The position numbers were made by a program, and so were the translations under genes. From Spirochaetia bacterium (lineage in GTDB: Bacteria > Spirochaetota > Spirochaetia > CAKZLE01), in contig JAIPFY010000004.1 of NCBI GenBank assembly GCA_021736385.1, forward strand, positions 6,112-70,111: a stretch of 64,000 nt of DNA, given 5' to 3'. Within the stretch, counting starts at the first letter, position 1. Every line of letters begins with the position of its first letter. Under the pieces are notes generated by a model, which was not told the origin of the DNA, made no database searches, and saw only the letters and a program-made list of their open reading frames with translations. Of the stretch, positions 11,469-32,698 are shown piece after piece.

Positions 11469-11482
11469 AACCTTCTCCTTAT

Positions 11483-14384: not shown

Positions 14385-14394
14385 TTGATATGGC

Positions 14395-15147
14395 ATGATC
14401 GGATTAAGCAGTAGAGAGAACCAGATACTGGAGACCTTGCGGAACGGGGAGAAGAACTCTGTTTCAGAGCTGAGTCATGAGCTGGGTGTCTCTGTTGTCA
14501 CGATCAGGGCTGATCTCAAGTCCATGGAAGAGAAGGGGGTCATCGTCCGCACACGGGGAGGGGCCATCCCTGCATTCCATCCGGAGATGATGGACAGGAT
14601 CGGCAGCAGGACTCCTGAGAAGGAGCGGATAGCAAAAGCTGCTGCAGACCTGGTCAAGGACGGCGATAAGATCATGATCACCAACGGGACGACCTCGGCC
14701 CTGGTCGGCCGATACCTGCTCGGGAGGCGTGATGTGCAGATCGTGACCAACTCGACCCTGCTGCTCCCCTATGCACGGGTGAACCCGAATCTGAACATCA
14801 CCTTTGTCGGAGGTGAGTTCAGACCATCGGCAGAAGCGCTGGTAGGACCTGAAGCTATCCATCGTATCGATCAGTTCCATGTCTCGATGACCATCACCGG
14901 GACTGACGGGGTGACCTCCGAACATGGGCTCACGACCCATCTGGTGGAAAGTGCTGAGATCGTCCGTAAGATGTGCGAACAGGCAGAGACACGGGTACTG
15001 GTGGTTGATTCATCGAAGTTCGGGAAGAAGGGGTTCGTGAAGATCCTGCCGCTCGAAGCGATCGATATCATCATCACCGATACCGGTCTTGATCAGCAGA
15101 CCGCAGAGAGCATCGAGAAGCTGGGAATAGAAGTACACAGGGTCTGA
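14395..15147 (+). CDS. DeoR/GlpR family transcriptional regulator
   Basis: N-terminal HTH (RENQILETLRNGEKNSVSELSHELGVSVVTIRADL) and C-terminal DeoR sugar-phosphate sensor domain. Confidence 0.85.
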   Translation: MIGLSSRENQILETLRNGEKNSVSELSHELGVSVVTIRADLKSMEEKGVIVRTRGGAIPAFHPEMMDRIGSRTPEKERIAKAAADLVKDGDKIMITNGTTSALVGRYLLGRRDVQIVTNSTLLLPYARVNPNLNITFVGGEFRPSAEALVGPEAIHRIDQFHVSMTITGTDGVTSEHGLTTHLVESAEIVRKMCEQAETRVLVVDSSKFGKKGFVKILPLEAIDIIITDTGLDQQTAESIEKLGIEVHRV

Positions 15148-15180
15148 TACAGACCCTGTCAGTTATAAGGAGAATGAAAT

Positions 15181-16548
15181 ATGGCAAAGCAGATCCTGAT
15201 GCCCAAACAGGGTAATTCAGTAGAATCATGCATCATCCTTGAGTGGAAGATCAAAGAGGGTGACAGCATAGCGACAGGAGATGTCATCTGTGAAGTGGAG
15301 ACAGATAAAGCGACCATAGAGGTCGAAGCCACCGCAGAGGGAACCGTTCTGAAGCTGCTCTACAGTGCAGATGACGATGTCCCGGTACAGGTCCCGATCG
15401 CTATCGTGGGAGAACCCGGAGAAGATATCTCATCGCTGGTCAGCGGTGAAGAGCCCCCGGCTGCTGAAGAAGAGCCCGAAACACCAGTCCCCGATGACAG
15501 GATCGCGATCGCGCAGGCCTCACCTGCATCGTCTTCACCGATCCCTGCAGGAACTGGTTTTGCCTCACCACGGGCAAAGATGCTTGCAGCGAAACGAGGT
15601 ATCGATGCCTCCGTGCTGACAGGGAGCGGACCGAAAGGGCGGGTGATCGAGCGTGATGTGGCTGCAGCAGAAGCCGGAAGAGCTCCTCTGACACCGACTG
15701 CCAGAGAGCTGATGGCAAAAGAACAACTCAGTGCACCGGAATCAGGCTCAGGCATCGGCGGACGTGTCGTCGCTGCTGACCTGTTGACCTCACGATCACA
15801 GCAGCTGGATGAAGCACAGGTAGAGACGGTGACAAGTGCCCTCGGATTCCCCGGACCTGTGGTGAAGACACCGGTACGGAGTGTCCGGAAGATCACTGCA
15901 CAGCGGATGAGAGAATCACTGGCAGTCTCTGCACAGCTGACTCTCAACAGTGCCGCTGATGCGACAGCCCTCAAGGCGCTCAGAGCACGGCTGAAGCAGA
16001 GCGACCCGAAACTCGGGCTCAACAATATCACCATCAACGATCTGGTACTCTATGTTGTGGCAAAGACCCTCAAGGAGTACCCGTCGATCAATTCACACTT
16101 CCTTGGCGATACCATCGTCGAGTTCGAGCACGTACACCTCGGGTGTGCGGTGGATACCCCGAAAGGACTCATGGTCCCGGTGATCCGATACGCTGACCTG
16201 ATGAGCCTCAAAGCACTCTCTGATACTGCCAAGGGGCTGATCAACAACTCGCTGGAGGGAAAGGCCGCACCTGAGGACCTGCAGGGTGGGACCTTCACCG
16301 TGACCAATCTGGGAGCTCTGGGAATCGACAGCTTCACTCCGGTACTCAATGTACCCGAGACGGCTATCCTCGGAGTCTGTACCATACAGCAGCGACCGGT
16401 CGAGACACCCTCCGGTGTCCAGTTCGTTCCCTATCTGGGATTATCACTGACCTTCGACCATCAGGCCTTCGACGGAGCTCCGGCAGCACGATTTCTCAAG
16501 GCGCTGAGCGAGAATATCAAGAATATCGACCTGTTGATGGCACGATAA
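15181..16548 (+). CDS. Dihydrolipoamide acyltransferase E2 component of a 2-oxoacid (acetoin/pyruvate-type) dehydrogenase complex
   Basis: Lipoyl domain with ETDKATIEVEA. Ala/Pro-rich linkers. Peripheral subunit-binding domain. Catalytic domain with DHQAFDGA motif. AAGGAG RBS. Confidence 0.9.
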   Translation: MAKQILMPKQGNSVESCIILEWKIKEGDSIATGDVICEVETDKATIEVEATAEGTVLKLLYSADDDVPVQVPIAIVGEPGEDISSLVSGEEPPAAEEEPETPVPDDRIAIAQASPASSSPIPAGTGFASPRAKMLAAKRGIDASVLTGSGPKGRVIERDVAAAEAGRAPLTPTARELMAKEQLSAPESGSGIGGRVVAADLLTSRSQQLDEAQVETVTSALGFPGPVVKTPVRSVRKITAQRMRESLAVSAQLTLNSAADATALKALRARLKQSDPKLGLNNITINDLVLYVVAKTLKEYPSINSHFLGDTIVEFEHVHLGCAVDTPKGLMVPVIRYADLMSLKALSDTAKGLINNSLEGKAAPEDLQGGTFTVTNLGALGIDSFTPVLNVPETAILGVCTIQQRPVETPSGVQFVPYLGLSLTFDHQAFDGAPAARFLKALSENIKNIDLLMAR

Positions 16549-16573
16549 CGAAAAAGAAGTAAGGAGCATACAT

Positions 16574-17911
16574 ATGAGCATATATGATCTGATCGTCATC
16601 GGCGCCGGACCCGGCGGGTACGTGGCAGCTGAACGTGCAGGAGCACTTGGCAAGCGAGTCCTGCTCATAGAGAAAGCAGAGATGGGAGGAGTCTGTACCA
16701 ACTGGGGATGTATCCCTACGAAGTCGCTCCTGAACTCTGCGAAACACCTTGTCCATGCACAGGAGAGCAGTAAGTACGGAGTACACTGCGGGGATGTGAC
16801 TTTCGAACTCTCCGAGGCTATGGCCTGGAAGGATGAGGTCGTCCAGACCCTTCGTTCTGGGATCACCTTTCTGATGAAGAAGCACAACGTGGAAGTGGTC
16901 GCAGGTGAGGCCGTATGTATTGACCGAAATCATGTGGCAGTCGGGGAGACGGTCTATGAGTGCACCAACCTCATCATAGCGACCGGTTCATCCCCGTTCG
17001 TACCCCCGATCCCCGGGGTGGAGAACGAGCTGGTCATGACCAGCAAGCAGATCCTCTCCATCGATCGTATCCCCCGTAAGCTTGCAGTGATCGGAGGAGG
17101 AGTCATCGGTATGGAATTCGGATCACTGTTCAGCTCGATCGGCAGTGAAGTGACGGTCATCGAGATGATGCCGGAGATCCTTCCCATGATGGATGGTGAG
17201 TTCGCGAAGCTGATGCGCAGGGAGATGAAGAAGATCACCTGTAAGACCAGCTGCAGGGTCGAAGAGATCCTGCCTGACGGACTGGTCTATACAGATAAGA
17301 AAGGTAAGAGACAACAGCTCGAAGCTGATGCGGTACTGCTGAGTGTTGGAAGAAGACCGAACACAGGGGGGCTCAAGGAGCTGGGGCTGGATATAGATCG
17401 GACAGGAGTGGTCGTCGATCAGTACATGAGGACCAATCTCCCGGGAGTCTATGCGATCGGTGATGTCAATGGCAGATCCCTGCTGGCACACTCTGCCTCA
17501 AGGATGGCTGACGTGGCGATCTCCCATATGTTCGGCACCCCGCAGCAGATGCGCTACCATGCGATCCCGTGGGCCATCTATACCCTGCCGGAAGCTGCCG
17601 GATGCGGTATGACCGAAGAGGACGCCAAGAAGAACGGCCACAGAGTGATCAGTGCCTCGGCACAGATGCGATCGAACGGCAGATTCCTTGCAGAACACGG
17701 TAAACGTGCAGGGGGGTTGTGTAAAGTCGTAGCCGATGCCGACAGCAGAGTGATCCTCGGGATCCATCTGCTCGGGGCAGTGAGCAGTGAGATGATCCAC
17801 AGTGCATCTGTGATCATTGAGTCAGAACTGAGAATACAGGACGTACAGGAGATAGTCTTCCCGCACCCGAGTGTCTCAGAGATCATCAAAGACGTCTGTT
17901 TCGAGCTGTAG
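16574..17911 (+). CDS. lpdA: Dihydrolipoyl dehydrogenase E3
   Basis: FAD motif GAGPGG. Redox-active disulfide [14 protein letters not shown]-terminal dimerisation domain. Confidence 0.9.
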
Positions 17912-17961
17912 AGCAGCAAGGAAGCAGAGCAGCATATATATACCAGAGGAGAGAACGAACC

Positions 17962-20415
17962 ATGCCTAGAACGATAACAGTGGATCCGGTAGCGATCCGA
18001 AAGAGCGATAGTGTGAAGATCAATCCGATCCCGGTCAATCAGTACAAACCGGATATCAAAGCGGAAGTGAAGAAGTACGGGAAAGAGGGTCTCAAGCGCA
18101 TGTACTACGACATGCTGATGATCAGAGAGTTCGAGGACATGCTCGACCAGATCAAGCGTGAGGGTTCCTATCAGGGGATGACCTATGACCATCGAGGACC
18201 TGCACACCTCTCAGCCGGACAGGAATCTGCCGCTGTGGGACAGTGTGTCAACCTCATGCCCGAAGATCACATCTTCGGCTCTCACCGAAGTCATGGAGAG
18301 ATCCTGGCAAAGTGCTTCTCTGCGATCCAGAAGCTCGATGATGATGCCCTGGAACTGATCATGAAGGAGTTCATGGATGGGGATGTCCTGTCTGTGGTAG
18401 AGACCCACTTCGCAGGAACGAGCGTCAAGGACCGTGCAGAGAACTTCGTCCTCTATGGGGCATTAGCTGAGATCTTTGCACGAAAGACCGGGTTCAGCCG
18501 CGGACTCGGCGGTTCGATGCACACCTTCTTCGCTCCCTTCGGCAGTATGCCGAACAATGCCATCGTCGGCGGAAGTGGGGATATCGCGGTAGGTGCAGCA
18601 CTCTATAAGAAGATCAACAAGAGACCGGGGATCGTCATTGCCAACATCGGTGATGCGGCAATGGCCTGCGGCCCGGTATGGGAAGGGTTGATGCTTGCTG
18701 CGATGGACCAGTACCACACCCTCTGGGGTGACCGTGCAGGTGCACCTCCCTATATGCTCAATGTCTTCAACAACTTCTATGGGATGGGCGGACAGACCTC
18801 CGGAGAGACCATGGGCTACGGGATCCCGGCACGAATAGGAGCCGGAGTCAATGCAGATGGCATGCATGCAGAACGAGTCGATGGTTTCAACCCGCTGGCT
18901 GTCGCAGATGCCATCGAACGTAAACGGAAGCTGATGCTCGAGGGGAAAGGACCTGTCCTGATGGATACGATCACCTACCGCCTCTCCGGGCACTCCCCGT
19001 CTGATGCCTCATCCTATCGAACGAAAGAAGAGGTTGACTCCTTCAAAGAACATGATGCTATCCCTGCATTCGCCGATTACCTGCAGAAGAACGGCATCAT
19101 CACCGAAGAAGAGATCGCCTCCTATAAGGAACAGATCACCGCTAAGATCACCACGACCATGAGACTTGCGATCGATGATGAGATCTCCCCGAGAGTGGAC
19201 GGGGCATTCATCGAATCCGTGATGTTCTCGAATGGTTCTGTAGAAGCCTTCGGTGCAGGTGAGGCTGAACTGCTCACACCGATCGAAGAGAACATACGAG
19301 TCCAGCAGATCGCCAAAAAGACAAGGACTGCCACGGTCGGTGGGAAGAAGGTACCGGCTGCACGCATGTACGCCTACCGGGATGCGATCTTCGAGGCCAT
19401 GCTCCACCGCTTTGCAATAGACCCGACCATGGTCGCCTACGGCGAGGAGAACCGGGACTGGGGTGGTGCATTCGCCTGTTACCGAGGACTGACCGAGATC
19501 CTTCCCTATCACCGACTCTTCAACTCACCGATCTCAGAAGCCTCTATCGTCGGCAGCGGTGTCGGGTATGCCTTAAGTGGTGGACGTGCTGTGGTAGAAC
19601 TGATGTACTGTGACTTCATGGGAAGAGCAGGGGATCAGATCTTCAACCAGATGCCCAAATGGCAGGCGATGAGTGCCGGTGTCCTGAAGATGCCGCTGGT
19701 ACTTCGCGTATCGGTCGGGAACAAGTACGGTGCCCAGCACTCACAGGACTGGACCGCCCTGACCGGCCATATCCCGGGACTGAAAGTCATGTTCCCATCG
19801 ACCCCCTATGATGCGAAGGGCATGCTGAACCTGGCCCTGAGAGGTACCGACCCGGTAGTCTTCTTCGAGAGCCAGAAACTCTATGGTATCGGAGAGGAGT
19901 TCGAGAAGGACGGCGTACCGGAGGGGTATTATGAAGTGCCCGAGGGAGAGCCTGCGGTACGCAGAACGGGGACCGACGTCACGATCATCACCATCGGTGC
20001 GACCCTGTATCCTGCCATCGATGCTGCGAAGCTGCTGGAAGAGACCTATGGGATGAGTGCAGAAGTCATTGACCTGAGATTCATCAACCCGCTGAACTAT
20101 GGACCGCTGGTGGAATCGGTGAAGAAGACCGGCAGAGTGCTGCTGACCTCAGATGCCAGTGAGCGAGGGTCCTTCCTCCACACGGTGGCATCGAACCTCG
20201 GCCGACTGGCCTTTGATTACCTTGATGCACCTCCTGTGGTGCTCGGGTCAAGGAACTGGATCACTCCGCCGGCTGAGATGGAAGACTACTACTTCCCCAC
20301 AGCGAAGTGGATGCTCGATGCCATCCATGAGCAGATCATTCCGCTCAAAGGGCATGCAGTGACCACAGTACAGACTGATGGGGAGTTCATCAGAACACAG
20401 CGTTCAGGCGTATAA
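17962..20415 (+). CDS. Fused E1 alpha-beta component (TPP-dependent 2-oxoacid/acetoin dehydrogenase E1)
   Basis: 817 aa. N-terminal TPP-binding alpha module ([13 protein letters not shown]). C-terminal transketolase-like beta module. GAGGAG RBS. Gene order E2-E3-E1. Confidence 0.85.
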
Positions 20416-20428
20416 CACTATGATGATC

Positions 20429-20474
20429 GGCAGCACCGGTTCACTGTCCATGGTGAGGCAGAACCGGTGCTGCC
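20429..20474 (+). terminator. Perfect 13-bp inverted repeat hairpin after the E1 gene
   Basis: GGCAGCACCGGTT-20nt-AACCGGTGCTGCC followed by TTCGTG. Weak U-tail, so possibly a partial terminator. Confidence 0.45.
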
Positions 20475-20489
20475 TTCGTGAGGGACTAT

Positions 20490-21842
20490 ATGAACAGTAC
20501 AGAACGGATCAATCCAGCAGAAGTGATCGACAGGCTCAATGCTCAAGAGCGGTCAGAGCGTCTGGCGGCTGCTGAAGAGGTCGGCCGTCTGATCGATCAG
20601 CAGCTGATCACCAGAGAACCTCTTCGTGAAGTGAACAATCACGTACACACCCAATATTCTTTCAGTCCCTACTATCCTGCGATGGCGGCCTTCCGTGCAT
20701 GGGAAGCAGGTCTGCAGATAGTCGGCAGTATCGATCACGACAGCATCTCTGCAGCAGAAGAGATGCTGCTTGCGGGAGCATCCATTGGCATAGCGACCAC
20801 CGTCGGCTTCGAAGTCCGATGCAGTTTCCTGGATACGCCACTTGCGGATAAGAAGATCAACAACCCTGACTCTCGGGGGATCGTCTACATGTGCGTACAC
20901 GGGGTGCCCGCACAGCATATCGAACAGGTGAAAGAGTTCCTCAGACCGGTCAACCGGGTTCGGAACATCAGAAACCGGGCAGAGGTCGAAGCGCTCAATG
21001 CACTCATGGCACCGAGCGGCATCACCGCGCTGGATTTCATGGATGATGTAGCTTCCCTGTCTCAGATGAACGAAGACGGGAGTATCACAGAGCGCCATAT
21101 CCTCTATGCGCTGGCAGGAAGACTGATAGACAGCTGCGGTATCGGTGCTCCCCTGGTGGCATTCCTTGAACAGACCCTGCAGCTCTCTCTCTCCGGTGCG
21201 ATCAGAGAGTATCTGCTTGATGAGCAGAACCCTCACTATCGATATGACCTGCTGGGTATCCTCAAAAGTGCCTATCTCCCTGAGTTCTTCATCCAGCCGT
21301 CTCGGGAAGAGACGATACCGGTTGAGGAGGTGGTGAACTTCTGCAGAACGATCGGTGCCATCCCTGCCTATGCCTATCTCGGTGATGTCACAGAGAGCCC
21401 TACCGGCGATAAGAAGGCGGAGAAGTTCGAAGACAGCTTCCTTGATGAGCTGTTCGACCTGCTTGATGAGATCGGTTTCCAGGCGGTGACCTATATGCCG
21501 CCGAGAAATTCAAAGGAACAGCTGCTGCGGGTGCAGAGCCTTGCACGTACCCATGGATTGATGGAGATCAGCGGAGTGGATATCAACTCCTCACGACAGA
21601 AGTTCAACTGTCCTGAGCTCTTGGAACCGGAGTTCGAACATCTGATCGATTCTGCATGGGCGCTAGTCGCCCATGAGAAACTTGCCTTCCATGACCCGTC
21701 GCTGGCTCTGTTCAGTGACAGCAACCCCCTGCATGACCAGCCGCTCTCGAAGCGGATCGAACGATATGCACGGATCGGACGGGAGATGGATCCCGGAAGA
21801 CCCGAATCTGTAGTGGAACTGATGGAACAGACAGAGGAGTAA
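20490..21842 (+). CDS. PHP-domain metal-dependent phosphoesterase (function unknown)
   Basis: HVHTQYS and GSIDHD motifs typical of PHP domains. ATG at 20490 with GAGGGA RBS preferred over the GTG at 20478. Confidence 0.6.
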   Translation: MNSTERINPAEVIDRLNAQERSERLAAAEEVGRLIDQQLITREPLREVNNHVHTQYSFSPYYPAMAAFRAWEAGLQIVGSIDHDSISAAEEMLLAGASIGIATTVGFEVRCSFLDTPLADKKINNPDSRGIVYMCVHGVPAQHIEQVKEFLRPVNRVRNIRNRAEVEALNALMAPSGITALDFMDDVASLSQMNEDGSITERHILYALAGRLIDSCGIGAPLVAFLEQTLQLSLSGAIREYLLDEQNPHYRYDLLGILKSAYLPEFFIQPSREETIPVEEVVNFCRTIGAIPAYAYLGDVTESPTGDKKAEKFEDSFLDELFDLLDEIGFQAVTYMPPRNSKEQLLRVQSLARTHGLMEISGVDINSSRQKFNCPELLEPEFEHLIDSAWALVAHEKLAFHDPSLALFSDSNPLHDQPLSKRIERYARIGREMDPGRPESVVELMEQTEE

Positions 21843-21847
21843 GAATC

Positions 21848-23014
21848 ATGAGTAGAGAACCGATGGAACGTCCTGAAGCGGTCATCCCGCCCTATCTGCG
21901 GGGATTGACCTATGATGGCGTGAAAGGATTATGTATAACCCGTATTGACACACCTCCTGCAGGGGAGGTCCTGACGATCGAGTGCGGTGAAGAAGACCAG
22001 AGTCAGGAACAACTGCTTGAAGATGCAGGAAAGCAGTTCCATGCATATACCCACAAGCATCAGAGCTACCCTGCTGCAGTACGACTCTCAACAGGGGCCG
22101 TCTTCGGATTGGGCGTCGACTACCAGGAGGCCTCAGCAGCTGCAGGATGTTCGATCCTGCCCCAAGTGAAGGGATCGACCTCCCGCTCAGATGTGGTACG
22201 GAACAAGATCGCTCTGGTGACAGGGGGGGCTCAGGGATTCGGCGAGGGCATGGTCAGAGGACTGGCTGCAGAGGGTGCATTCGTCTTCATCGCCGATATG
22301 AACCTCACCGGAGCCACAGCACTCGCGGAGACCCTGAATGCCGAGAATGGAAGAACGACGGCTCTTGCGGTCGAAGTGAATGTCACTGATGAGTCGTCGG
22401 TGGAGAAGATGCTCTACGAGGTGACACAACTCACCGGCGGGCTCGATATCTTCATCAGCAATGCCGGCGTCCTCAGAGCCGGGAGTGTCAAGGAGATGAC
22501 CCTCAGGGACTTCAATTTCGTTACCTCCGTCGATTATGTCGGCTTCTTCATCTGTACCAAACACACCTCCCGTGTGATGGCTCTGCAGCATCAGGGCTCT
22601 TCGGACTACCGTGCCGATATCATCGCGATCAGCTCGAAGTCGGGACTCGAGGGGTCCAACAAGAACGGGGCCTATTCCGGAGCGAAGTTCGGTACCATCG
22701 GATTGACACAGAGCTTTGCGCTGGAGTTGGTGACCGATGGGATCAAAGTCAATGCGATCTGTCCCGGGAACTTCCTCGACGGACCGCTGTGGTCCGACCC
22801 TGAGAAGGGACTGTTCGTACAGTACCTGCAGACCGGGAAAGTACCTGGAGCTGAGACCCTTGCGGATGTCAGAAGATTCTATGAGGCGAAGGTTCCCCTA
22901 GGCCGCGGATGTACTACCGATGATGTGATGAAGGCACTGCTGTATTGCATCGAACAGCACTATGAGACCGGACAGGCTATCCCTGTTACCGGCGGACAGG
23001 TGATGCTCAACTGA
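21848..23014 (+). CDS. Short-chain dehydrogenase/reductase with about 115-aa N-terminal extension (candidate RhaW-like lactaldehyde dehydrogenase)
   Basis: SDR core KIALVTGGAQGFGEG ... YSGAKFG (YxxxK). GAGGAG RBS at the long start. The extension has no recognisable motif. Confidence 0.6.
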   Translation: MSREPMERPEAVIPPYLRGLTYDGVKGLCITRIDTPPAGEVLTIECGEEDQSQEQLLEDAGKQFHAYTHKHQSYPAAVRLSTGAVFGLGVDYQEASAAAGCSILPQVKGSTSRSDVVRNKIALVTGGAQGFGEGMVRGLAAEGAFVFIADMNLTGATALAETLNAENGRTTALAVEVNVTDESSVEKMLYEVTQLTGGLDIFISNAGVLRAGSVKEMTLRDFNFVTSVDYVGFFICTKHTSRVMALQHQGSSDYRADIIAISSKSGLEGSNKNGAYSGAKFGTIGLTQSFALELVTDGIKVNAICPGNFLDGPLWSDPEKGLFVQYLQTGKVPGAETLADVRRFYEAKVPLGRGCTTDDVMKALLYCIEQHYETGQAIPVTGGQVMLN

Positions 23015-23045
23015 TGCACACCTGTGATCAAAGGGAGATCAATCA

Positions 23046-24305
23046 ATGAAGACAACAGCTGTAAGACTCTATGGAGTCAATGACCTGCGTATGGAAGAGT
23101 TCGACTTGCCGGAGATCAAAGATGATGAGATCCTGGCAAAAGTCATCACCAACAGTATCTGCATGTCCAGTCACAAGGCTGCAGAACAGGGCGCTGCACA
23201 CAAGCGGGTCCCCGCTGATATCGCAGAGCATCCGGTGATCGTCGGACATGAGTTCTGCGGCGAGATCGTGAGCGTTGGCTCGCGATGGGCTGACAAGTTC
23301 AAAGCGGGGGACAGGTTCTCTATCCAGCCGGCTCTGAACTACAAGGGGTCTCTCGATGCCCCGGGGTACTCCTACCGATGGATCGGGGGGAATGCCACCT
23401 ATATCGTGATACCTCATGAAGTCATGGAGATGGACTGCCTGCTCCCCTATAAGGGTGATGCCTATTTCCTGGGCTCTCTCTCAGAACCGGTCTCCTGTAT
23501 CGTAGGGACCTTCCATGCGATGTATCATACCCGACAGGGCTCATACATCCATGATATGGAGATAGTCGAAGGCGGCAAGATGGCGATCCTTGCAGGCGTG
23601 GGACCCATGGGCCTCGGTGCGATCGATTATGCCATCCATAACAGCCGGCGACCGGGACTGCTGGTCGTCACCGATATCGATCAGGCACGCATCGATCGTG
23701 CAGCCTCCCTGTTCACCGTCGAGGATGCGAAAGCACACGGGGTGGAACTGGTCTATCTGAACACCGGTTCGATGGACGATGCCAATGAGCAGCTCATCGC
23801 GCTCACCGGTGGTACCGGGTTCGATGACGTGATGGTCATGGCTCCTGTGAGGCCTGTCGTGGAACAGGGAGATGCGATCCTCGGGAAGGACGGCTGTCTG
23901 AACTTCTTCGCCGGACCGAACAGGACAGATTTTTATGCACAGATGAATTTCTATGATGTACACTACGCTGCTCACCACATCGTGGGGACCAGCGGCGGTA
24001 ATACGGCCGATATGAAAGAATCACTGAGCATGATGGAAGCAGGGCAGCTCAACCCGGCATCGATGATCACCCATGTGGGTGGACTTGATGCGGTGGCACA
24101 GACCATCATAGACCTCCCGGCGATCCCTGGTGGTAAGAAACTGATCTATACCCACATACGCATGCCGCTGACGGCTATTGATGATTTTGCAGCGCTTGGT
24201 GCAGAGGATCCCTTCTTTGCAGAACTTGCCGGGATCGTAGCACGGCATAACGGATTGTGGTCAAAAGAGGCTGAAGATCATCTGCTCTCTACGAAGCAGG
24301 CATAA
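23046..24305 (+). CDS. Zinc-dependent medium-chain alcohol/polyol dehydrogenase
   Basis: GHEFCGEIVSVG catalytic Zn motif. Rossmann GVGPMGLGA. 419 aa. AAGGGAG RBS. Confidence 0.8.
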   Translation: MKTTAVRLYGVNDLRMEEFDLPEIKDDEILAKVITNSICMSSHKAAEQGAAHKRVPADIAEHPVIVGHEFCGEIVSVGSRWADKFKAGDRFSIQPALNYKGSLDAPGYSYRWIGGNATYIVIPHEVMEMDCLLPYKGDAYFLGSLSEPVSCIVGTFHAMYHTRQGSYIHDMEIVEGGKMAILAGVGPMGLGAIDYAIHNSRRPGLLVVTDIDQARIDRAASLFTVEDAKAHGVELVYLNTGSMDDANEQLIALTGGTGFDDVMVMAPVRPVVEQGDAILGKDGCLNFFAGPNRTDFYAQMNFYDVHYAAHHIVGTSGGNTADMKESLSMMEAGQLNPASMITHVGGLDAVAQTIIDLPAIPGGKKLIYTHIRMPLTAIDDFAALGAEDPFFAELAGIVARHNGLWSKEAEDHLLSTKQA

Positions 24306-24329
24306 CGAACAGAAACAAAAGGAGTCTGC

Positions 24330-25745
24330 ATGAACAAATATATCGCTGTAGACCTCGGGGCATCGAACGGCAGGGTGATCGTCGGTGACCTCGAGCACTT
24401 CGAAGTAACCAACAGGTTCGTCACGAAGAACGAGCTGGTGAACGGACGGGTGTACTGGGACATCATTGGTATCTTCTCAGAGATCAAGAAGGGGATCAAG
24501 AGTGCCTTCTCCCTCTACGGGGACCAGATCGTCTCCATAGGGATCGATACCTGGGGAGTCGATTTCGGCCTGCTGGATGAAGCAGGTGAACTGCTTGGCA
24601 ATCCCTACCACTACCGGGATAACCGGACAGACGGTATGATGGAACACGTCTTCTCCCTGATCCCGAAAGAGCAGATCTATCAGGCGACCGGCATCCAGTT
24701 CATGCAGCTCAACACCATCTACCAGCTGGCTGCACTGAAGAAGGACCATCCTCAGCTGCTCGCAGCTGCCAGGCACTATCTATCGATCCCCGACCTGCTG
24801 TGCTACTGGCTGACCGGGGTGATGAAGAACGAGTACTCCCATGCCACCACCACCCAGCTCTATGATCCGAACAGCGGGGATTGGGCCTGGGAGATCATTG
24901 ATGCCCTGGGACTCGATCGTGGCCTCTTCGGACAGATCGTCCCCAGCGGGACGGTACTCGGACCCCTTTCAGCAGAGGTCGCGAAAGAACTCCATGCCCC
25001 TGAAGGGGTGACCGTCATAGCCTCGGGCAGCCATGACACAGCCTCTGCTGTGGCTGCAGTGCCGGTTCTCTCAGATGAACAGTACCTCTACCTCTCAAGC
25101 GGTACCTGGTCGCTGCTCGGTATAGAGAGTGATCATCCGATCATCTCGGAGAAGACCCTTGCCTATAACTTCACCAACGAGGGAGCTGCGAGCGGCAAGA
25201 TCAGGTTCCTGAAGAACATCATGGGCATGTGGATCCAGCAGGAGTGCATACGGTGGTGGGAAGCAGGCGGAGAGGAGATCTCGTGGAAGGTCCTTGATCA
25301 GCAGACCCTTGCTGAAGCTGATTTCCCCTCATTCATCGATCCCAATGATCCCCGTTTCCTCAAACCCAACACATCTTCATCATCCATGCCTGACCGGATA
25401 TGCAGTTACTGCAGAGAGCAGGGGATGAGCGAGCCGGAGAATCACGGGCAGTTCATGACTGCGATCTATCGCGGTCTGGCGAAAGCCTATGCCTTCTACC
25501 TGCAGCAGATCCAGGAGCTTACCGGCATACAGTTCGACCGCCTCTATATCATAGGAGGGGGGAGTAAGAACGCCATCCTGAACCAGTGGACGGCAGAAGA
25601 GGCGAAGATCAGGGTCTCATCAGGTCCTGTGGAGGCCACAGCCTTGGGGAACATCCTGATCCAGGCCCTTGCCTGCGGTGATATCCCGGACCGAAGTGCC
25701 GGCAGACAGATCATACGGACCTCTCAGGAGATCATTGACTACTGA
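24330..25745 (+). CDS. rhaB: Rhamnulokinase (FGGY carbohydrate kinase)
   Basis: N-terminus YIAVDLGASNGRVIVG matches the RhaB start. FGGY N- and C-domains. Located in the rha cluster. Confidence 0.75.
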   Translation: MNKYIAVDLGASNGRVIVGDLEHFEVTNRFVTKNELVNGRVYWDIIGIFSEIKKGIKSAFSLYGDQIVSIGIDTWGVDFGLLDEAGELLGNPYHYRDNRTDGMMEHVFSLIPKEQIYQATGIQFMQLNTIYQLAALKKDHPQLLAAARHYLSIPDLLCYWLTGVMKNEYSHATTTQLYDPNSGDWAWEIIDALGLDRGLFGQIVPSGTVLGPLSAEVAKELHAPEGVTVIASGSHDTASAVAAVPVLSDEQYLYLSSGTWSLLGIESDHPIISEKTLAYNFTNEGAASGKIRFLKNIMGMWIQQECIRWWEAGGEEISWKVLDQQTLAEADFPSFIDPNDPRFLKPNTSSSSMPDRICSYCREQGMSEPENHGQFMTAIYRGLAKAYAFYLQQIQELTGIQFDRLYIIGGGSKNAILNQWTAEEAKIRVSSGPVEATALGNILIQALACGDIPDRSAGRQIIRTSQEIIDY

Positions 25746-26649
25746 TCGGGCGGTTGATCCTGTCACGGTATGCCTTCTTGTATTCCCGTGGACTTGCCTG
25801 CATGATCCGGCGGAACTGCCGTGAGAAGTAGTTGCTGTCAGAGAAGCCGGTCAGTTCGGAGATCCTGGTGATCGAGTATCCTGTCGTCCTCAACAGGCGG
25901 CAGGACCGCTCGATACGCAGCCGCAGCTGGTACTCGATCGGTGAACAGCCTGCGGCTTTATGAAAGGCCCTGTTGAGACTGCTGTGCGACATATGAGCGA
26001 TCGAGCACAGCTCATCGATCGTCACTGTGCGGTCACTGTTCTGCTCGATGCAGGTGAAGGCACCTGCCAGGCGCATGATCATGCTTGAATCAGGGATCTC
26101 TGTCTGCGTGTATCGTCGTGAGAGGTATACGACGATCTCGATGAAATAGGCCAGAGCAAGAGCTTTGTTACCGCTCCCGTGATGCTGCCGATCGAGTTCT
26201 TCCTTGACCATGTCTATGCGTTCGATCATATAGGTAAGATCTGCAGAACCGAGCCTCAGTCTGCTGTTGAACTCATGAGAGTCGCGGTATCGGGGTTCGA
26301 TGTTGAAGATCGCATGGTATCCCGGCATCTCCTTGATGTCAAAGAACATCTGGCTGAGCAGCTTCTTGTCGAAGATGATATTATAGAGCTGCAGATCCTT
26401 CGTATCACGGTACCCGTGGGCATAGCCTGCTTCGATGACGAACACATCACCGGGAAAGACCTGGTACTCTGCGCTGCAGGAGAAATGGATGCCGGTCCCG
26501 CTGGTCACGATGACCAGTTCATGAAAATCATGCGTATGCAGCGGATAGGGGACCTGAGGTTTTCTCTCAAGGAGCCTGAGATGAAAATCATCCTCGGAGA
26601 AGAAGGTGTAGGATGATAGATGCGTTGACTGGTTTTCGGAATCAAACAT
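25732..26649 (-). CDS. AraC family transcriptional regulator (RhaS/RhaR-like; cupin sensor + HTH)
   Basis: N-terminal cupin (HTHDFHELVIV). C-terminal AraC-type dual HTH. Divergent from rhaA. Confidence 0.8.
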   Translation of the reverse strand: MFDSENQSTHLSSYTFFSEDDFHLRLLERKPQVPYPLHTHDFHELVIVTSGTGIHFSCSAEYQVFPGDVFVIEAGYAHGYRDTKDLQLYNIIFDKKLLSQMFFDIKEMPGYHAIFNIEPRYRDSHEFNSRLRLGSADLTYMIERIDMVKEELDRQHHGSGNKALALAYFIEIVVYLSRRYTQTEIPDSSMIMRLAGAFTCIEQNSDRTVTIDELCSIAHMSHSSLNRAFHKAAGCSPIEYQLRLRIERSCRLLRTTGYSITRISELTGFSDSNYFSRQFRRIMQASPREYKKAYRDRINRPISSQ

Positions 26650-26742
26650 GACAGAATAGTGCTAGTAAATGAGACGATAGTCAAGGCATGCAGACGAATA
26701 TGGCAGTACTATAGATGATAAGAGCATAAGAAGGAGTAATAC

Positions 26743-28011
26743 ATGAACACATTTGAAGATACGGGAGCATACCGATGGGCACAAGAGGCCTATGCTGCTC
26801 TGGGAGTTGACACAGAGGCCGCCATAGCACGACTGCAGACGATCCCCATCTCGCTGCACTGCTGGCAGGGCGATGACGTAGGCGGATTCGAGACCCCCGG
26901 AGCCACCCTCTCCGGTGGAGGGATCCAGGTCACCGGGAACTATCCCGGGAAAGCCCGTTCGATCAAAGAACTGCAGGCTGATATCGAGAAGGTCTATACC
27001 ATCATCCCGGGGGTCCACCGGCTGAACCTGCATGCGAGCTATGGTGAGTTCGGGGATACGTTCGTCGATCGCGATCAGATCGAGATCGAACATTTCACCG
27101 TCTGGGTCGAGTGGGCAAAGCGACTGGGGATCGGAGTCGATTTCAACGCCACCTGCTTCTCCCACCCCAAGGCCGAGGACGGTTTCACCCTTGCGAGCAA
27201 AGATCCCGAGATCCGGGCTTTCTGGATCGAACATGTCAAACGGGCGCGTAAGATCGCTGCCCATTTCGGTAAGGAACTCGGTACACCTTCGGTGCACAAC
27301 ACCTGGATACCCGATGGTTCCAAAGACCTTACCATCGACAAGACCGGGTATCGCGAACTGCTCAAAGAAGCGCTCGATGAGATCTTTGCGGTGGAGTACC
27401 CGAAAGCATATCTCAAAGATGCTGTGGAGACCAAGCTCTTCGGTATCGGCAGTGAATCCTTTGTCGTCGGTTCCCATGAGTTCTATATGAACTATGCGAT
27501 CAGAAACGACAAGATGGTCTGTCTGGACCTCGGACACTTCCACCCGACCGAGCAGATCGCTGATAAGATCTCCGCGATGATGGTCTTCTCCGATGAGATG
27601 CTGCTGCATGTGAGCCGGCCGATGCGCTGGGACAGTGATCACGTGGTGATCCTCAATGATGATATCATCTATCTGACACAGGAACTGGTACGATGCGGAA
27701 AACTCGATCAGATCCATATCGGACTTGACTTCTTCGATGCCACGATCAACCGGGCAGGTGCCTGGGTCACCGGAGCACGTGCTACGCAGAAAGGGCTGCT
27801 GATGGCCCTGCTCGAGCCGACAGGATTGCTCAAGGAATATGAGGAGTCGGGGAACCTCTATGCTCGGCTCGGACTGCTCGAACAGCTCAAGAGCATGCCC
27901 TTCGGTATCATCTGGGATGAGTTCTGTGCACGAGAAGGGGTCTGCAGGGAATCAGAGGTCATCCAGGAGGTGCTGACCTATGAGCAGCAGGTCCTGAAGG
28001 AGCGTACCTGA
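26743..28011 (+). CDS. rhaA: L-rhamnose isomerase
   Basis: LQTIPISLHCWQGDDVGGFE matches the conserved RhaA N-terminal region (E. coli LPVSMHCWQGDDVSGFE). 422 aa. Confidence 0.9.
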   Translation: MNTFEDTGAYRWAQEAYAALGVDTEAAIARLQTIPISLHCWQGDDVGGFETPGATLSGGGIQVTGNYPGKARSIKELQADIEKVYTIIPGVHRLNLHASYGEFGDTFVDRDQIEIEHFTVWVEWAKRLGIGVDFNATCFSHPKAEDGFTLASKDPEIRAFWIEHVKRARKIAAHFGKELGTPSVHNTWIPDGSKDLTIDKTGYRELLKEALDEIFAVEYPKAYLKDAVETKLFGIGSESFVVGSHEFYMNYAIRNDKMVCLDLGHFHPTEQIADKISAMMVFSDEMLLHVSRPMRWDSDHVVILNDDIIYLTQELVRCGKLDQIHIGLDFFDATINRAGAWVTGARATQKGLLMALLEPTGLLKEYEESGNLYARLGLLEQLKSMPFGIIWDEFCAREGVCRESEVIQEVLTYEQQVLKERT

Positions 28012-29117
28012 TGGATATCGCAGACCTGATCGAGGTATCAAGGCGGTACGGAGCTGATGAACAGATGGTCCTGGCAGGAGGGGGGAATACCTCCAAGAAG
28101 CTGGGAGGAGAGATGTATGTGAAGGCTTCCGGTCACATGCTTGCAGATATCGATGCTTCCGGGTTCGTGAAGATGGACCTGTCAGCACTTGAGCAGATCT
28201 GGGACAAAGAGTACCCTGAAGATACTGATGAACGTGAGAATCAAGTCCTCGCCGACATGATGGAGGCACGGTTCGCCGGTGAGCAGGCACGACCGAGTGT
28301 CGAAGCGCTGCTGCACAGTCTCCTGAAACCGGTCTATGTGGTACACCTGCATCCTGGTCTGGTCAACGGTGTGACCTGTGCACAGGACGGTGAGGAGACG
28401 GTACACCGGCTCTTCGGGGACGATGCTGTCTGGATCCCGCTGGTGAACCCCGGTTATATCCTGGCAAAGACTGTCAGGGATGCCATCAGGGAGCACGAAG
28501 GGCGAACCGGAGTCTACCCTGCCAGTATCTTCCTGCAGAACCACGGCGTGTTCGTGAGCGCTGATACCCTGGATGAGATCGACAGGAACTATGACAGGAT
28601 CATGAGCACCCTCACAGCAGCACTCAAGAGAACCCCTCAGATGGCTCCTGTGGCTGTGGATCCGAAACGGAAGGAGCTGATCACAGAGGCTCTGCAAACC
28701 TATGCCGGTTCAGAACAGGCATGCCATGTGCTGATGAACGAGGAGCTGACCTCACGGCTGCAGGATGAAGAGTCCTTCTATCCGCTCAGTTCAGCCTTCA
28801 CCCCCGATCATATCGTCTACAGCGGATTCAAACCGCTGTGGATCGACCATACTGTCTTCAGCGAGGAGGACCCGGTCGCGGCGGTGGCGGCACGATGCAG
28901 GGCGTATGAAAAAGCATACGGAGTAGCCCCCAAGTGTCTTGCTGTACAGAATACCGGTATCTTCGCCTTGGAAGAACGTGCTGTCATCCTCTTTCAGGAT
29001 ACCGTGAAGGTAGCAGCCTACACTGAGTCCTTCGGTGGAGCACGATTCATGGATGATGATCAGATCAGTTTCATCAGGAACTGGGAAGTAGAGAAATATA
29101 GAGCTAAAGTCTCCTGA
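28011..29117 (+). CDS. Stand-alone RhaE-type rhamnulose-1-phosphate aldolase domain protein (class II aldolase-like; homolog of the N-terminal half of RhaEW/YuxG)
   Basis: GGGNTSKK and QNHGVFV motifs. One-nucleotide overlap TGATG with rhaA. No SDR half attached. Confidence 0.6.
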   Translation: MDIADLIEVSRRYGADEQMVLAGGGNTSKKLGGEMYVKASGHMLADIDASGFVKMDLSALEQIWDKEYPEDTDERENQVLADMMEARFAGEQARPSVEALLHSLLKPVYVVHLHPGLVNGVTCAQDGEETVHRLFGDDAVWIPLVNPGYILAKTVRDAIREHEGRTGVYPASIFLQNHGVFVSADTLDEIDRNYDRIMSTLTAALKRTPQMAPVAVDPKRKELITEALQTYAGSEQACHVLMNEELTSRLQDEESFYPLSSAFTPDHIVYSGFKPLWIDHTVFSEEDPVAAVAARCRAYEKAYGVAPKCLAVQNTGIFALEERAVILFQDTVKVAAYTESFGGARFMDDDQISFIRNWEVEKYRAKVS

Positions 29118-29132
29118 AAGCACCATAGGCCT

Positions 29133-29183
29133 GATGTGAGACGGGGTGCGGTACAGACCGCACCTTGTCTCACATCTTTTTTT
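29133..29183 (+). terminator. Rho-independent terminator of the rha operon
   Basis: GATGTGAGAC ... GTCTCACATC stem with inner GTGCGGT/ACCGCAC, followed by TTTTTTT. Confidence 0.85.
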
Positions 29184-31245: not shown

Positions 31246-31560
31246 ATGAAAGAGATCAAAGAGAATCTGCAGTATATCATGGAGAAGCATGGTGATATCT
31301 ATGCTGCCTATGAGCAGTACGGGAGGCTGGTCCATACTGATGGAGGGCCTCTTGATGAGAAGACCCGATGGCTGATCAAGGTTGCCATATCCAGTGCGAG
31401 TGAATACCAGTTCGCTCTTCGGACCCACATCAACAAGGCCCTGGCCGCGGGGTGCACCCGTGAAGAGATCGAACACGCCATATTGATGATCGCTCCGACC
31501 ACAGGATTCCCGAGGATGATGGAAGGTATCATGATCCTGCGCGAACTGCTCGGGGATTAG
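31246..31560 (+). CDS. Carboxymuconolactone decarboxylase (CMD/AhpD-like) family protein
   Basis: 104 aa. Typical CMD helical core. AAGGAG RBS. Confidence 0.7.
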   Translation: MKEIKENLQYIMEKHGDIYAAYEQYGRLVHTDGGPLDEKTRWLIKVAISSASEYQFALRTHINKALAAGCTREEIEHAILMIAPTTGFPRMMEGIMILRELLGD

Positions 31561-31761
31561 GTATTCGGCTGCATGTATCAGTCGGTAAGAAAATGGTCCT
31601 CGTTCCAACTACTCATAGTAGACGGTATATGTATAGTATACGACATAACTCATTGTGCATGAATATTTCGGATGAGGTATGCATATACTATGCTCAGGAG
31701 AATAGCATGCCACATCGAGATTAGTGTACTGATCCTGCCGAGCTTCTCGCTGAAGAACAGA

Positions 31762-31937
31762 TGATCATATCTTCAACCAATGATGCACAGTTTCAGCAGA
31801 AAGTGGAAATCGTTAATTTGGTGCTCAGTGGTCTTACACCCTCGTTTTTGAGCACATACTGCGGGGAAAGCACAAATGCTATTACGCTTTGGGTGAAGAC
31901 CACTGATGAGCAGGGTTTTGATGCTCTTACGCTCTAA
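31762..31937 (+). pseudogene. Remnant of an IS630-like transposase N-terminal wHTH (58-codon fragment)
   Basis: Translation ...LVLSGLTPSFLSTYCGESTNAITLWVKTTDEQGFDAL resembles the IS630/Tc1 N-terminal HTH (LSxGxS...FGVSxSTVxRWVKRxxExG). No DDE domain follows. Confidence 0.35.
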
Positions 31938-32698
31938 TAACCGGTTTGGACCCCGATCCCTGCATCGACGCGTATGTTGATCCCGGTGATCTTCGAAGCC
32001 TGACTGCTTGCCAGGAACAGGGCAGTGTGTGCCACATCCTCAGCGTCTATGAGAGTATGCAGAGGAGAGTTCTCTGTATACCTCCGCACTCCGTCAGGCC
32101 ATGCCTGCTCTATGCCCTCACGATGGATGACCCCCGGTGAGATGCCATTCACTCTGATCGAATACGGACCGAGTTCAAGAGCCGATGCACGGGTGAACTG
32201 CAGCAGCCCGCCCTTGAGAGCCCCGTACTGACTGTGACCTGCAGCCGGGTTCTCCGCTTCTATCGACAGGATGTTGATGATCGAGCGCTGTATATCTATT
32301 CCCCTGCTGCGTGCCTGTCTGGCCATCTGTGCAGTGCAGTAGATCGGTGCGAAGAGATTCACTGCGCTCATGCTGCCCAGCAATCCTTCATTGGTCTCCA
32401 TGATCGGCTGCAGATCCTGTATCCCGGCATTATTGATCAGTACATCAATACACTCCGTGTGTGATGAGATCTCTGAGAACAGCTGCACGATCGCATCGTG
32501 TGAGCTGAGATCGGCCTCAAGCAGGTGGTATGAGCCTGCGGGCAGCGTGCTGATCCAGACAGGCAGTTCTCCGGTCCACGATCGTGCCTGAAGGAAGAGG
32601 TGAGCCCCTTCTGCGGCGAAAGCTGTTGCCAGAGCCGTACCGAGCAGGCCTCTGCTCCCTGTGATCAATACCCCTTTCCCCTTGAGATCAGCATACAT
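31934..32698 (-). CDS. SDR family oxidoreductase
   Basis: KGVLITGSRGLLG Rossmann motif. YxxxK (YGALKGG). 254 aa. Confidence 0.8.
   Translation of the reverse strand: MYADLKGKGVLITGSRGLLGTALATAFAAEGAHLFLQARSWTGELPVWISTLPAGSYHLLEADLSSHDAIVQLFSEISSHTECIDVLINNAGIQDLQPIMETNEGLLGSMSAVNLFAPIYCTAQMARQARSRGIDIQRSIINILSIEAENPAAGHSQYGALKGGLLQFTRASALELGPYSIRVNGISPGVIHREGIEQAWPDGVRRYTENSPLHTLIDAEDVAHTALFLASSQASKITGINIRVDAGIGVQTGY

Follow-up and report, generated by a model that had tools for sequence, protein, structure and literature searches.

A conserved L-rhamnose gene supercluster of spirochaetes with a lipoamide complex and a split RhaEW-like enzyme: possible release of acetyl-CoA from a phosphorylated 6-deoxy sugar

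This work concerns a gene cluster in a stretch of 64,000 nucleotides from a Spirochaetia bacterium (assembly GCA_021736385.1, contig JAIPFY010000004.1, positions 6,112 to 70,111 of the forward strand), referred to as the window. As judged by homology, the cluster is a conserved catabolic supercluster for L-rhamnose, a 6-deoxyhexose, in which RhaA is predicted to isomerise rhamnose and a kinase to form L-rhamnulose-1-phosphate. These genes are joined by the E1, E2, and E3 components of a lipoamide complex, a PHP-fold protein, a short-chain dehydrogenase/reductase (SDR), a medium-chain dehydrogenase/reductase (MDR), and a stand-alone class II aldolase. It is proposed, tentatively and at something short of an even chance, that the complex carries out an acetoin-dehydrogenase-like cleavage of a methyl ketone that is made on the phosphorylated 6-deoxy sugar. 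The original prediction, made from the sequence of the window, had described the rhamnose genes and had hinted that a product derived from lactaldehyde or similar to acetoin may feed the complex. All of the genes that it named were found, with coordinates that are exact or off by a few bases, and the E2, E3, and fused E1 genes do lie directly upstream of the PHP-SDR-MDR run, with a DeoR gene ahead of E2.

Conservation of the gene cluster

The scan used one genome per species. A PHP homologue is present in at least 571 genomes, and the best 80 loci were analysed; each count of neighbours is the number of loci with the gene over the number with enough flanking sequence on the contig. Most of the sampled loci are from Spirochaetota (Sphaerochaeta, Pleomorphochaeta, Marispirochaeta, Oceanispirochaeta), and the remainder include Pontiella (Kiritimatiellota), an Atribacterota metagenome-assembled genome (MAG), and others. 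The gene order of the core, DeoR-E2-E3-E1 alpha-beta-PHP-SDR-MDR, is conserved in about 90-99% of the sampled loci. The SDR is beside the PHP gene in 70 of 71 loci, the fused E1 alpha-beta in 67 of 70 (mean identity 69%), and the MDR in 66 of 68 (mean identity 70%). Similar values are seen for E3 (57/63) and E2 (55/59). A DeoR gene heads the core in 52 of 57 loci, and in 46 of 60 the next gene after the MDR is the RhaB-like kinase.

The position of the remaining rhamnose genes varies. The AraC-RhaA-aldolase trio adjoins the core in 8 loci and can be on either side of it. In locus L097, in which the PHP protein is 46% identical to that of the window, nine enzymes are encoded in one co-directional cluster with the order MDR-SDR-E2-E3-E1 alpha-beta-PHP-RhaA-aldolase-kinase. 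The aldolase gene is not adjacent to the core but is located elsewhere in the genome in P. coccoides, Sphaerochaeta sp. PS, and two uncultured Sphaerochaeta. RhaM and a CUT2 ABC transporter are found directly upstream of the core in 15 loci; RhaM is absent from the window, although it is common beside the core in Sphaerochaeta. In 5 loci the module has a transketolase gene immediately downstream, and 3 of these loci have a HAD phosphatase there as well. Because of the shared gene order and the single cluster in L097, the association of the core with rhamnose genes is real and old. The link between the E2-E3-E1 genes and rhamnose that had been proposed from one window is therefore not a matter of chance, as it is kept in about 80 sampled loci from several phyla.

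The lipoamide complex

Only one component of the complex, E3, scores above a family cut-off, and it does so as a lipoamide dehydrogenase (Table 1). The E1 and E2 components miss the cut-offs of the pyruvate dehydrogenase (PDH) models: the scores are 187 versus 394 for E1 alpha, 223 versus 321 for E1 beta, and 285 versus 445 for E2, for which the PDH E2 model is the best NCBIfam match. The failure of E1 and E2 to reach these curated cut-offs suggests that the complex is specialised. The alpha half of E1 shares about 30% identity with generic E1 alpha sequences that are unassigned. It has few matches to annotated AcoA or PdhA proteins (24-32% identity, several of them partial-length), and those to annotated AcoA are partial-length with 28-29% identity. 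Dividing E1 proteins into PDH-like and Aco-like by similarity was uninformative since the PdhA and AcoA matches fall in the same low range.

A better indication of function comes from the closest relatives of E1, which are fused E1 alpha-beta proteins encoded in sugar clusters of Rhizobium pRL8 and Agrobacterium pAt15955 (50-54% identity). One E1 alpha-beta relative is annotated acoB. In Rhizobium johnstonii 3841 pRL8 (10830-17649) and Agrobacterium pAt15955 (10375-26400) a fused E1 that is 54% identical to that of the window is followed by a stand-alone lipoyl protein, an AcoC-like alpha/beta hydrolase, a carbohydrate kinase, and a SorC regulator. Both clusters also hold sugar ABC transporters, RbsD/FucU, a sugar-phosphate isomerase, a mannitol-dehydrogenase-family enzyme, xylB, and lipA, and neither cluster contains an aldolase. 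A lipoyl protein and an alpha/beta hydrolase after E1 is the AcoC arrangement of proteobacterial acetoin dehydrogenases. The gene content of the two clusters suggests that a ketose phosphate is cleaved in a lipoamide-dependent manner. In locus L092, the module ends with genes for a lipoate-protein ligase and a radical-SAM (lipoyl synthase-like) protein. Based on these lipoylation genes and on the AcoC-type, aldolase-free sugar clusters of the rhizobia, the fused-E1 clade looks dedicated to ketones derived from sugars and not to pyruvate. We think that the complex is distinct from PDH and acts in an acetoin-dehydrogenase-like manner. The E2 protein of L097 (4962-6119) has 385 aa with E3-binding and catalytic domains only and no lipoyl domain reported; either its start was mis-called or the lipoyl domain is encoded elsewhere.

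The aldolase and the SDR

RhaEW is a bifunctional L-rhamnulose-1-phosphate aldolase/L-lactaldehyde dehydrogenase that is represented by YuxG of Bacillus subtilis, Caur_2283 of Chloroflexus, and rhizobial 'RhaD' (Rodionova et al. 2013, PMC3870299). It had been suggested that the aldolase and the SDR of the window are the separated halves of such an enzyme. The protein of a rhizobial rhamnose locus (L089), which scores 1209 bits on TIGR02632, served as the RhaEW reference. The 368-aa aldolase aligns to the RhaE half of this protein (residues 26-335, 25% identity, E 3e-19), and the alignment of the SDR core falls in the RhaW half (residues 437-693, 27% identity, E 9e-25). The NCBIfam matches of the aldolase are solely the N-terminal halves of eleven 'bifunctional aldolase/SDR' models. 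The RhaD, FucA, AraD, and MtnB models are all missing from these matches (E <= 0.01) and no E. coli-type RhaD was found in the cluster region, in agreement with what had been noted earlier. The GGGNTS phosphate loop (residues 23-28) and His112, His114, and His178 are invariant in the aldolase group and in RhaEW, and Glu98 sits where RhaE has an Asp residue. The closest 120 homologues of the aldolase are all stand-alone proteins of 354-405 aa.

Fused forms do exist within the module. Locus L079 has a single uninterrupted open reading frame (ORF) of 653 aa, consisting of the aldolase, a 10-aa linker, and the SDR, which is located between the PHP and MDR genes. The aldolase part is 39% identical to the aldolase of the window and the SDR part is 60% identical to the SDR core. 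A 654-aa protein with Aldolase_II and adh_short domains occupies the same operon position in L092/L093. Among the relatives of the module, only these have the single polypeptide typical of RhaEW; the window has two genes.

The N-terminal extension of about 115 aa on the SDR, which the original prediction had flagged as unexplained, is real and is kept in 66 orthologues. Residues 51-91 of this extension match residues 283-323 of the aldolase (hhalign: probability 90.6%, E 1.3e-6, score 45); among 20 column-shuffled profiles used as a control the top score was 18. The profile of the extension also matches the corresponding part of both RhaEW and the L079 fusion. It follows from these matches that residues 1-117 of the SDR are a remnant of the C-terminal aldolase subdomain, which in the fused proteins is located just ahead of the SDR.

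The scores on TIGR02632 (cut-off 568) argue against full membership of the RhaEW family, as the aldolase scores 98 bits, the SDR 139 bits, and the fused relatives 213-248 bits. A rha-locus context of the RhaEW type, with an isomerase and a kinase, is found in the window, L002, L097, and others. The closest family of the SDR is sorbitol-6-phosphate dehydrogenase SrlD (NF009050), on which it scores 239 bits versus a cut-off of 307. The SrlD signature motifs are present, and the closest solved structure to the core (residues 118-388) is PDB 5o3z (170 bits). Since the SDR is nearer to SrlD than to RhaW, the reaction that it catalyses may not be lactaldehyde oxidation. Taken together, the comparisons support the view that the aldolase and the SDR correspond to the two halves of a RhaEW-like bifunctional enzyme that are here separate genes. 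The colinear alignment and the fused relatives agree with the split that had been predicted, but the RhaEW cut-off is missed and the SDR resembles SrlD more closely.

The PHP protein

The PHP gene had been taken to start at 20490; this is an internal ATG and the ORF opens with a GTG at 20478. The protein has no Pfam match, and its NCBIfam PHP match is 21 bits over the N-terminus. Comparison with the PDB by sequence gave a marginal match only and an exact-sequence look-up of the protein gave no match. The AlphaFold model has a pLDDT of 90.5 and a PHP fold. The best Foldseek matches of the model are TrpH/YciV-type proteins (3e0f; 2yb1, a pAp phosphatase; RNase AM) with TM values of 0.70-0.72 on the target. 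H55, H57, D86-H87-D88, E112, H141, D368, and H399 are invariant. From its predicted fold, the protein is likely a metal-dependent (phospho)esterase-like enzyme.

There are more than 7000 PHP homologues, and a 50%-identity library contains 662 clusters of them. The homologues include P0122 of the L092 module, which is fused to a mannitol-1-phosphate 5-dehydrogenase-like domain, and a fusion to an FGGY fragment. The fusion with the mannitol-1-phosphate 5-dehydrogenase-like domain in L092 (10001-17368) has 840 aa, and this cluster has neither a kinase nor RhaA. In a distant locus, L096, the PHP gene is followed by an MDR gene and is near a kinase and a class II aldolase. More distant relatives (P0158, P0191, P0199, and P0207, 27-33% identity) are fused to LPG_synthase_TM membrane, GNAT, methyltransferase, or PLP-enzyme domains. 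The PHP clade is functionally wider than the rhamnose module.

The MDR, kinase, isomerase, and regulators

The nearest solved structures to the MDR are ketose reductase and sorbitol and xylitol dehydrogenases, all of them weak matches, and there is a weak match to IolM as well. RhaZ was ruled out as a model for the MDR because it is an iron-type alcohol dehydrogenase. Both rhaA and rhaB had been called clear. The rhaA product is above the cut-offs of NF002203 (646 versus 572) and TIGR01748 (600 versus 585), and the rhaB product is below that of its family (471 versus 528). The rhamnulokinase model TIGR02627 is by far the best family for this FGGY kinase, with fuculokinase next at 157 bits, and the protein is a probable L-rhamnulokinase by homology. 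The best NCBIfam models for the AraC regulator are RhaS (128 bits) and RhaR (112 bits), each of which is below its cut-off. This putative RhaS-like regulator may govern rhaA and the aldolase gene. DeoR-family regulators typically respond to sugar phosphates, and the DeoR protein of the window is probably a sugar-phosphate-sensing repressor of the long operon.

Proposed mechanism

In the route that is proposed here, the SrlD-like SDR and the MDR, both of which resemble hexitol-phosphate-type dehydrogenases, would act on rhamnulose-1-phosphate and convert the CH3-CHOH end of the sugar into a CH3-CO-CHOH methyl ketone with the phosphate retained. E1 would then split off the acetyl unit, and E2 and E3 would hand it over as acetyl-CoA together with NADH. 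The leftover C4 phosphate may be converted by the aldolase-fold enzyme and the PHP phosphoesterase to dihydroxyacetone phosphate (DHAP) or to pentose-phosphate intermediates. The net result would be that the deoxy end of the sugar becomes acetyl-CoA, and hence ATP, with no excretion of 1,2-propanediol.

Several observations favour methyl-ketone cleavage. The SrlD-like, MtlD-like, and GatD/polyol-like dehydrogenases in these clusters belong to families that interconvert hexitol and ketose phosphates. SrlD oxidises the carbon that is four positions from the phosphorylated carbon, and this rule would put the oxidation at C5 of rhamnulose-1-phosphate or its reduced form, next to the methyl group. 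The PHP gene is almost always beside E1, which implies that the substrate or the product is phosphorylated, and DeoR regulators sense sugar phosphates. Lastly, the E1 clade occurs elsewhere in sugar clusters that have no aldolase.

Other observations weigh against it. The aldolase-SDR fusion is the architecture of RhaEW, which is reported to yield DHAP and L-lactate (PMC3870299); this points to a C3 route and not to a cleavage of the sugar phosphate by the complex. Some cores have no kinase, and one lies close to FucI/FucU, which is consistent with a substrate that fucose and rhamnose have in common, for example lactaldehyde. The stereochemistry of the proposed C4 product would be non-standard (D-threose-4-phosphate or L-erythrose-4-phosphate, or a 3-oxo form), and no isomerase was identified for this product. 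The last motif of the PHP protein is D-I-N and not the canonical D-x-H; together with the absence of a Pfam match this indicates that the protein may not be a phosphatase. C. saccharolyticus forms 1 mol of 1,2-propanediol per mol of rhamnose (PMC4187192), so if it has the same module then the methyl end is not oxidised in that organism. The proposal is weakest with respect to what becomes of the C4 phosphate, including its stereochemistry, and what the aldolase and the PHP protein do. A PdxA-family gene was observed in locus L098 (1-11517), where E1 alpha-beta-PHP is beside an ABC transporter, RbsD/FucU, and an FGGY kinase. PdxA belongs to the 4-phospho-tetronate dehydrogenase/decarboxylase family, and this single instance is a possible clue to how a C4 phosphate could be converted to DHAP.

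A broader proposal, which is less probable and has to be called doubtful, is that the fused E1 alpha-beta/E2/E3 complex is the first of a class of acetoin-dehydrogenase-like enzymes that depend on lipoamide and have ketones of sugar phosphates as substrates for cleavage. The module would then be a third, non-aldolytic route for 6-deoxyhexoses. The two dehydrogenases would shift the carbonyl of rhamnulose-1-phosphate to C5, giving a 1-deoxy-ketohexose-6-phosphate or a 5-keto derivative, before acetyl-CoA is released, and the aldolase-fold and PHP proteins would bring the C4 phosphate back into central metabolism.

A number of other routes were considered. The gene set would fit a sedoheptulose-bisphosphate-like route in which the aldolase works with a PHP bisphosphatase (a transketolase is present in the 5 loci mentioned above), but the stereochemistry would not, and this is a possibility only. 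A glycerol or tetritol electron sink via the MDR with the PHP protein, a methylglyoxal-synthase-like PHP protein, an attack of E1 on C2 of rhamnulose-1-phosphate to give phosphoglycolyl-CoA, and an MtnB-like dehydratase role for the aldolase were not adopted due to the energetics or because there was no supporting gene.

Alternative explanations

Could the module simply be an extension of the classical route? In such a scheme the aldolase would yield DHAP and L-lactaldehyde, the SDR would act as RhaW to form L-lactate, and the MDR or a separate lactate dehydrogenase would oxidise the lactate to pyruvate. The complex would be a dedicated, rhamnose-induced PDH that makes acetyl-CoA and CO2 and in doing so pulls the unfavourable oxidation of lactate, the MDR would carry out threonine/butanediol-dehydrogenase-like chemistry on CH3-CHOH, and the PHP protein would be an accessory. 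This explanation is rather unlikely but is the main alternative. The RhaEW architecture is regained in L079 and L092, RhaEW produces DHAP and lactate in vitro, and the RhaEW regulons of other phyla include genes for lactate dehydrogenase (PMC3870299). An Ldh gene is also located downstream of the P. coccoides cluster, the best, sub-threshold NCBIfam matches of E1 and E2 are PDH models, and the cores that lack a kinase or are near FucI/FucU are as expected for a module that uses a shared C3 product. However, the extended route provides no role for the strictly conserved PHP protein, for its mannitol-1-phosphate-dehydrogenase-like fusion, or for its adjacency to E1. The SDR is much nearer to SrlD than to RhaW, and we know of no lactate dehydrogenase of the MDR family. 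In addition, the 54%-identical relatives of E1 are found in rhizobial clusters with no aldolase or source of pyruvate, and their hosts already own a PDH.

In another explanation, the complex acts straight on L-lactaldehyde. For Caldicellulosiruptor, in which FucO and AldA are absent, Rodionov et al. suggest that the acetoin-dehydrogenase-like enzyme carries out the missing last step from lactaldehyde (PMC8579813). Thiamine diphosphate would add to the aldehyde, and the adduct would be oxidised by lipoamide to lactoyl-CoA or, upon dehydration, give propionyl-CoA, so that the complex would replace lactaldehyde dehydrogenase/reductase. The cluster of the window likewise has no FucO-type or aldehyde dehydrogenase gene. 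Aldehydes can act as donors with thiamine diphosphate, which favours this explanation, but E1 enzymes of this class are not, to our knowledge, efficient users of aldehydes. It leaves the SDR, the MDR, and the PHP protein unexplained, and the rhizobial relatives have no aldolase to supply lactaldehyde. Overall it is improbable. Hardly credible is the suggestion that a housekeeping 2-oxoacid dehydrogenase operon lies by chance beside unrelated rhamnose genes: the opposite-strand AraC gene does divide the locus into separate units and the original prediction was drawn from one window, but the order recurs in about 80 loci (Spirochaetota, Kiritimatiellota, Atribacterota, other MAGs), is headed by one DeoR, and in L097 all of the genes are together.

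Gene layout and genomic setting

The features of the locus are listed in Table 1.

Table 1. Genes and terminator of the rhamnose supercluster, in coordinates of the window
Feature	Position	Strand	Basis
DeoR-family regulator	14395..15147	+	Pfam HTH_DeoR and DeoRC
E2 dihydrolipoamide acyltransferase	15181..16548	+	Pfam Biotin_lipoyl, E3_binding, 2-oxoacid_dh
E3 dihydrolipoyl dehydrogenase	16574..17911	+	TIGR01350, 482 bits versus cut-off of 409
Fused E1 alpha-beta, thiamine-diphosphate component, 817 aa	17962..20415	+	Pfam E1_dh, Transket_pyr, Transketolase_C
PHP-fold (phospho)esterase-like protein, 454 aa	20478..21842	+	Weak NCBIfam PHP match and predicted fold
SDR dehydrogenase with N-terminal extension of about 115 aa	21848..23014	+	Rossmann core from residue ~118
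MDR (zinc alcohol dehydrogenase family) dehydrogenase, polyol/ketose-reductase type, 419 aa	23046..24305	+	Pfam ADH_N and ADH_zinc_N
RhaB-like FGGY kinase	24330..25745	+	TIGR02627, 471 bits versus cut-off of 528
AraC-family regulator, RhaS/RhaR-like	25732..26649	-	Pfam AraC_binding and HTH_18
L-rhamnose isomerase RhaA	26743..28011	+	NF002203 and TIGR01748, above cut-offs
Stand-alone RhaE-type class II aldolase, 368 aa	28011..29117	+	Pfam Aldolase_II
Intrinsic terminator, end of rhaA-aldolase unit	29133..29176	+	20-bp stem with 11 GC pairs, then TTTTTTT

The genes in the long plus-strand run are separated by gaps of 5-62 nt. The original prediction placed both the PHP gene and the MDR gene (the zinc alcohol dehydrogenase) between the SDR and the aldolase; this is correct for the MDR, but the PHP gene precedes the SDR. 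It also held all of the genes to be co-directional, which is not the case, as it overlooked the minus-strand AraC gene that parts rhaB from rhaA. For this reason it is unlikely that one transcript spans 14395 to 29117, and the locus has at least three predicted transcription units. The kinase and AraC genes are convergent and their 3' ends share 14 bp (25732-25745), with no terminator between them at this overlap; convergent transcription could couple the two units. The AraC and rhaA genes are divergent and 93 nt apart, and the start of the aldolase gene overlaps the stop of rhaA.

Upstream of the DeoR operon is a set of genes for oligosaccharides. A GH106 alpha-L-rhamnosidase-like gene (6484-8349, minus strand) lies 6 kb upstream of the core and is followed by a CUT1 oligosaccharide ABC transporter (8354-11468, minus strand). 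LacI (11563-12663) and GH43 (12660-14129) genes are directly upstream of the operon. The region from 6484 to 14129 is probably an uptake and hydrolysis unit for rhamnogalacturonan or arabinan oligosaccharides that supplies the rhamnose genes. Farther upstream (110-6364) are a CUT2 monosaccharide ABC transporter (ATPase, permease, and binding protein), a GFO/IDH/MocA oxidoreductase, and the tagaturonate epimerase UxaE. The upstream flank is a pectin, galacturonate, and rhamnogalacturonan setting.

On the other side, the terminator is followed by a gene for a 623-aa beta-lactamase-family (PF00144) protein (29286-31157). In locus L002, a 73%-identical relative, there is no PF00144 gene at this position and the aldolase is followed directly by CMD and SDR genes (31246-32698 in the window). 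The PF00144 gene is probably an insertion. Two groups of ORFs were set aside as they have no family match: a 351-aa ORF that is antisense inside rhaA (26662-27717, minus strand) and other antisense ORFs are probably spurious, and a 90-aa ORF that overlaps the 3' end of GH43 (14107-14379) is probably not a gene.

Significance

In anaerobes the methyl half of sugars such as rhamnose is thought to be lost as 1,2-propanediol. The gene set described here suggests that the methyl end of rhamnose may be burnt to acetyl-CoA and not excreted as propanediol. If the methyl half does become acetyl-CoA, the predicted fermentation products and ATP yields would change, and cross-feeding in digesters, sediments, and guts would shift towards less propanediol and more acetate, H2, or formate. 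Functions would also be provided for three large orphan families, which are the fused E1 alpha-beta proteins, the PHP clade, and the MDR clade, and the question of the 'unclear' genes in the rhamnose cluster of Caldicellulosiruptor, which dates from 2008, would be addressed. The module has been traced to at least 571 species genomes and to thousands of metagenomic proteins. The non-aldolytic route, if it exists, would be widespread among anaerobic spirochaetes and would have relatives in the sugar clusters of rhizobia.

A full-text search of the literature found no description of a spirochaete module with a fused E1 alpha-beta, a PHP protein, a vestige-bearing SDR, and an MDR. The search also found nothing on aldolase-SDR fusions inside the module or on the link to the rhizobial E1 alpha-beta clusters, and Ramachandran 2011 has nothing on the pRL8 E1 alpha-beta cluster. 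The sole precedent found is one sentence on Caldicellulosiruptor (PMC8579813). The module thus appears to be a previously undescribed variant of the phosphorylated rhamnose pathway with a RhaEW-type step. It also raises a question about how RhaEW itself works. Why does its aldolase need NAD+?

Comparison with known systems

The module and RhaEW share a class II aldolase with a zinc-binding His triad, a phosphate loop, and a C-terminal subdomain that is followed by an SDR, and both are accompanied by rhaA- and rhaB-type genes. They differ in that the aldolase and the SDR of the window are two genes that are 5 kb apart in different transcription units, the identity is 25-27%, and the scores are far below the RhaEW cut-offs. 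The pair is also located with a lipoamide complex, a PHP gene, and an MDR gene, none of which are present at RhaEW loci. The RhaEW study observed no DHAP without NAD+ (PMC3870299) and therefore left open which hydroxyl or carbonyl the SDR attacks.

Like acetoin dehydrogenase (AcoA/AcoB/AcoC/AcoL), the complex consists of a thiamine-diphosphate E1, a lipoyl E2, and an E3, with all of their genes in a catabolic operon for a specific substrate, and close relatives of E1 alpha-beta are paired with AcoC-type parts (a lipoyl protein and an alpha/beta hydrolase). In contrast to acetoin dehydrogenase, E1 alpha and beta are fused and E2 is a canonical three-domain protein, and the setting is deoxy-sugar catabolism under DeoR and not acetoin/butanediol under AcoR. 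The E1/E2/E3 architecture is also that of PDH, and the PDH models are the best sub-threshold family matches. However, E1 and E2 fail the PDH cut-offs and are encoded within a sugar operon with sugar-phosphate-type enzymes.

The Caldicellulosiruptor clusters (Athe_0702-4; Csac_0865-0876), which were compared by published description only, are similar in that rhaA and an aldolase are in the cluster. An acetoin-dehydrogenase-like three-subunit enzyme with no assigned function is encoded in this DeoR-regulated rhamnose cluster (PMC8579813), which is induced on rhamnose (PMC4187192). They differ from the present module in that the enzyme is described as having three subunits and the organism excretes 1,2-propanediol stoichiometrically.

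The Lsr system (autoinducer-2, AI-2; LsrK kinase and LsrF thiolase) resembles the proposed route in that a phosphorylated, deoxy-sugar-like compound gives up its methyl-ketone end as acetyl-CoA and DHAP is left. In Lsr, however, the C-C cleavage is done by a class I aldolase-fold thiolase and not by a thiamine/lipoamide complex, and there is no homology to E1. Two RhaE-type aldolases were observed near Lsr-type genes. On a Shinella plasmid (L087, 3784-13113), a fused aldolase-SDR is beside an LsrF-type thiolase, DeoR, an ABC transporter, and an FGGY kinase, and on S. meliloti pSymB (L088, 1-7164) a stand-alone RhaE-type aldolase closes an lsr (AI-2 uptake) operon. These two loci tie RhaE-type aldolases repeatedly to the release of acetyl-CoA and DHAP from phosphorylated methyl ketones.

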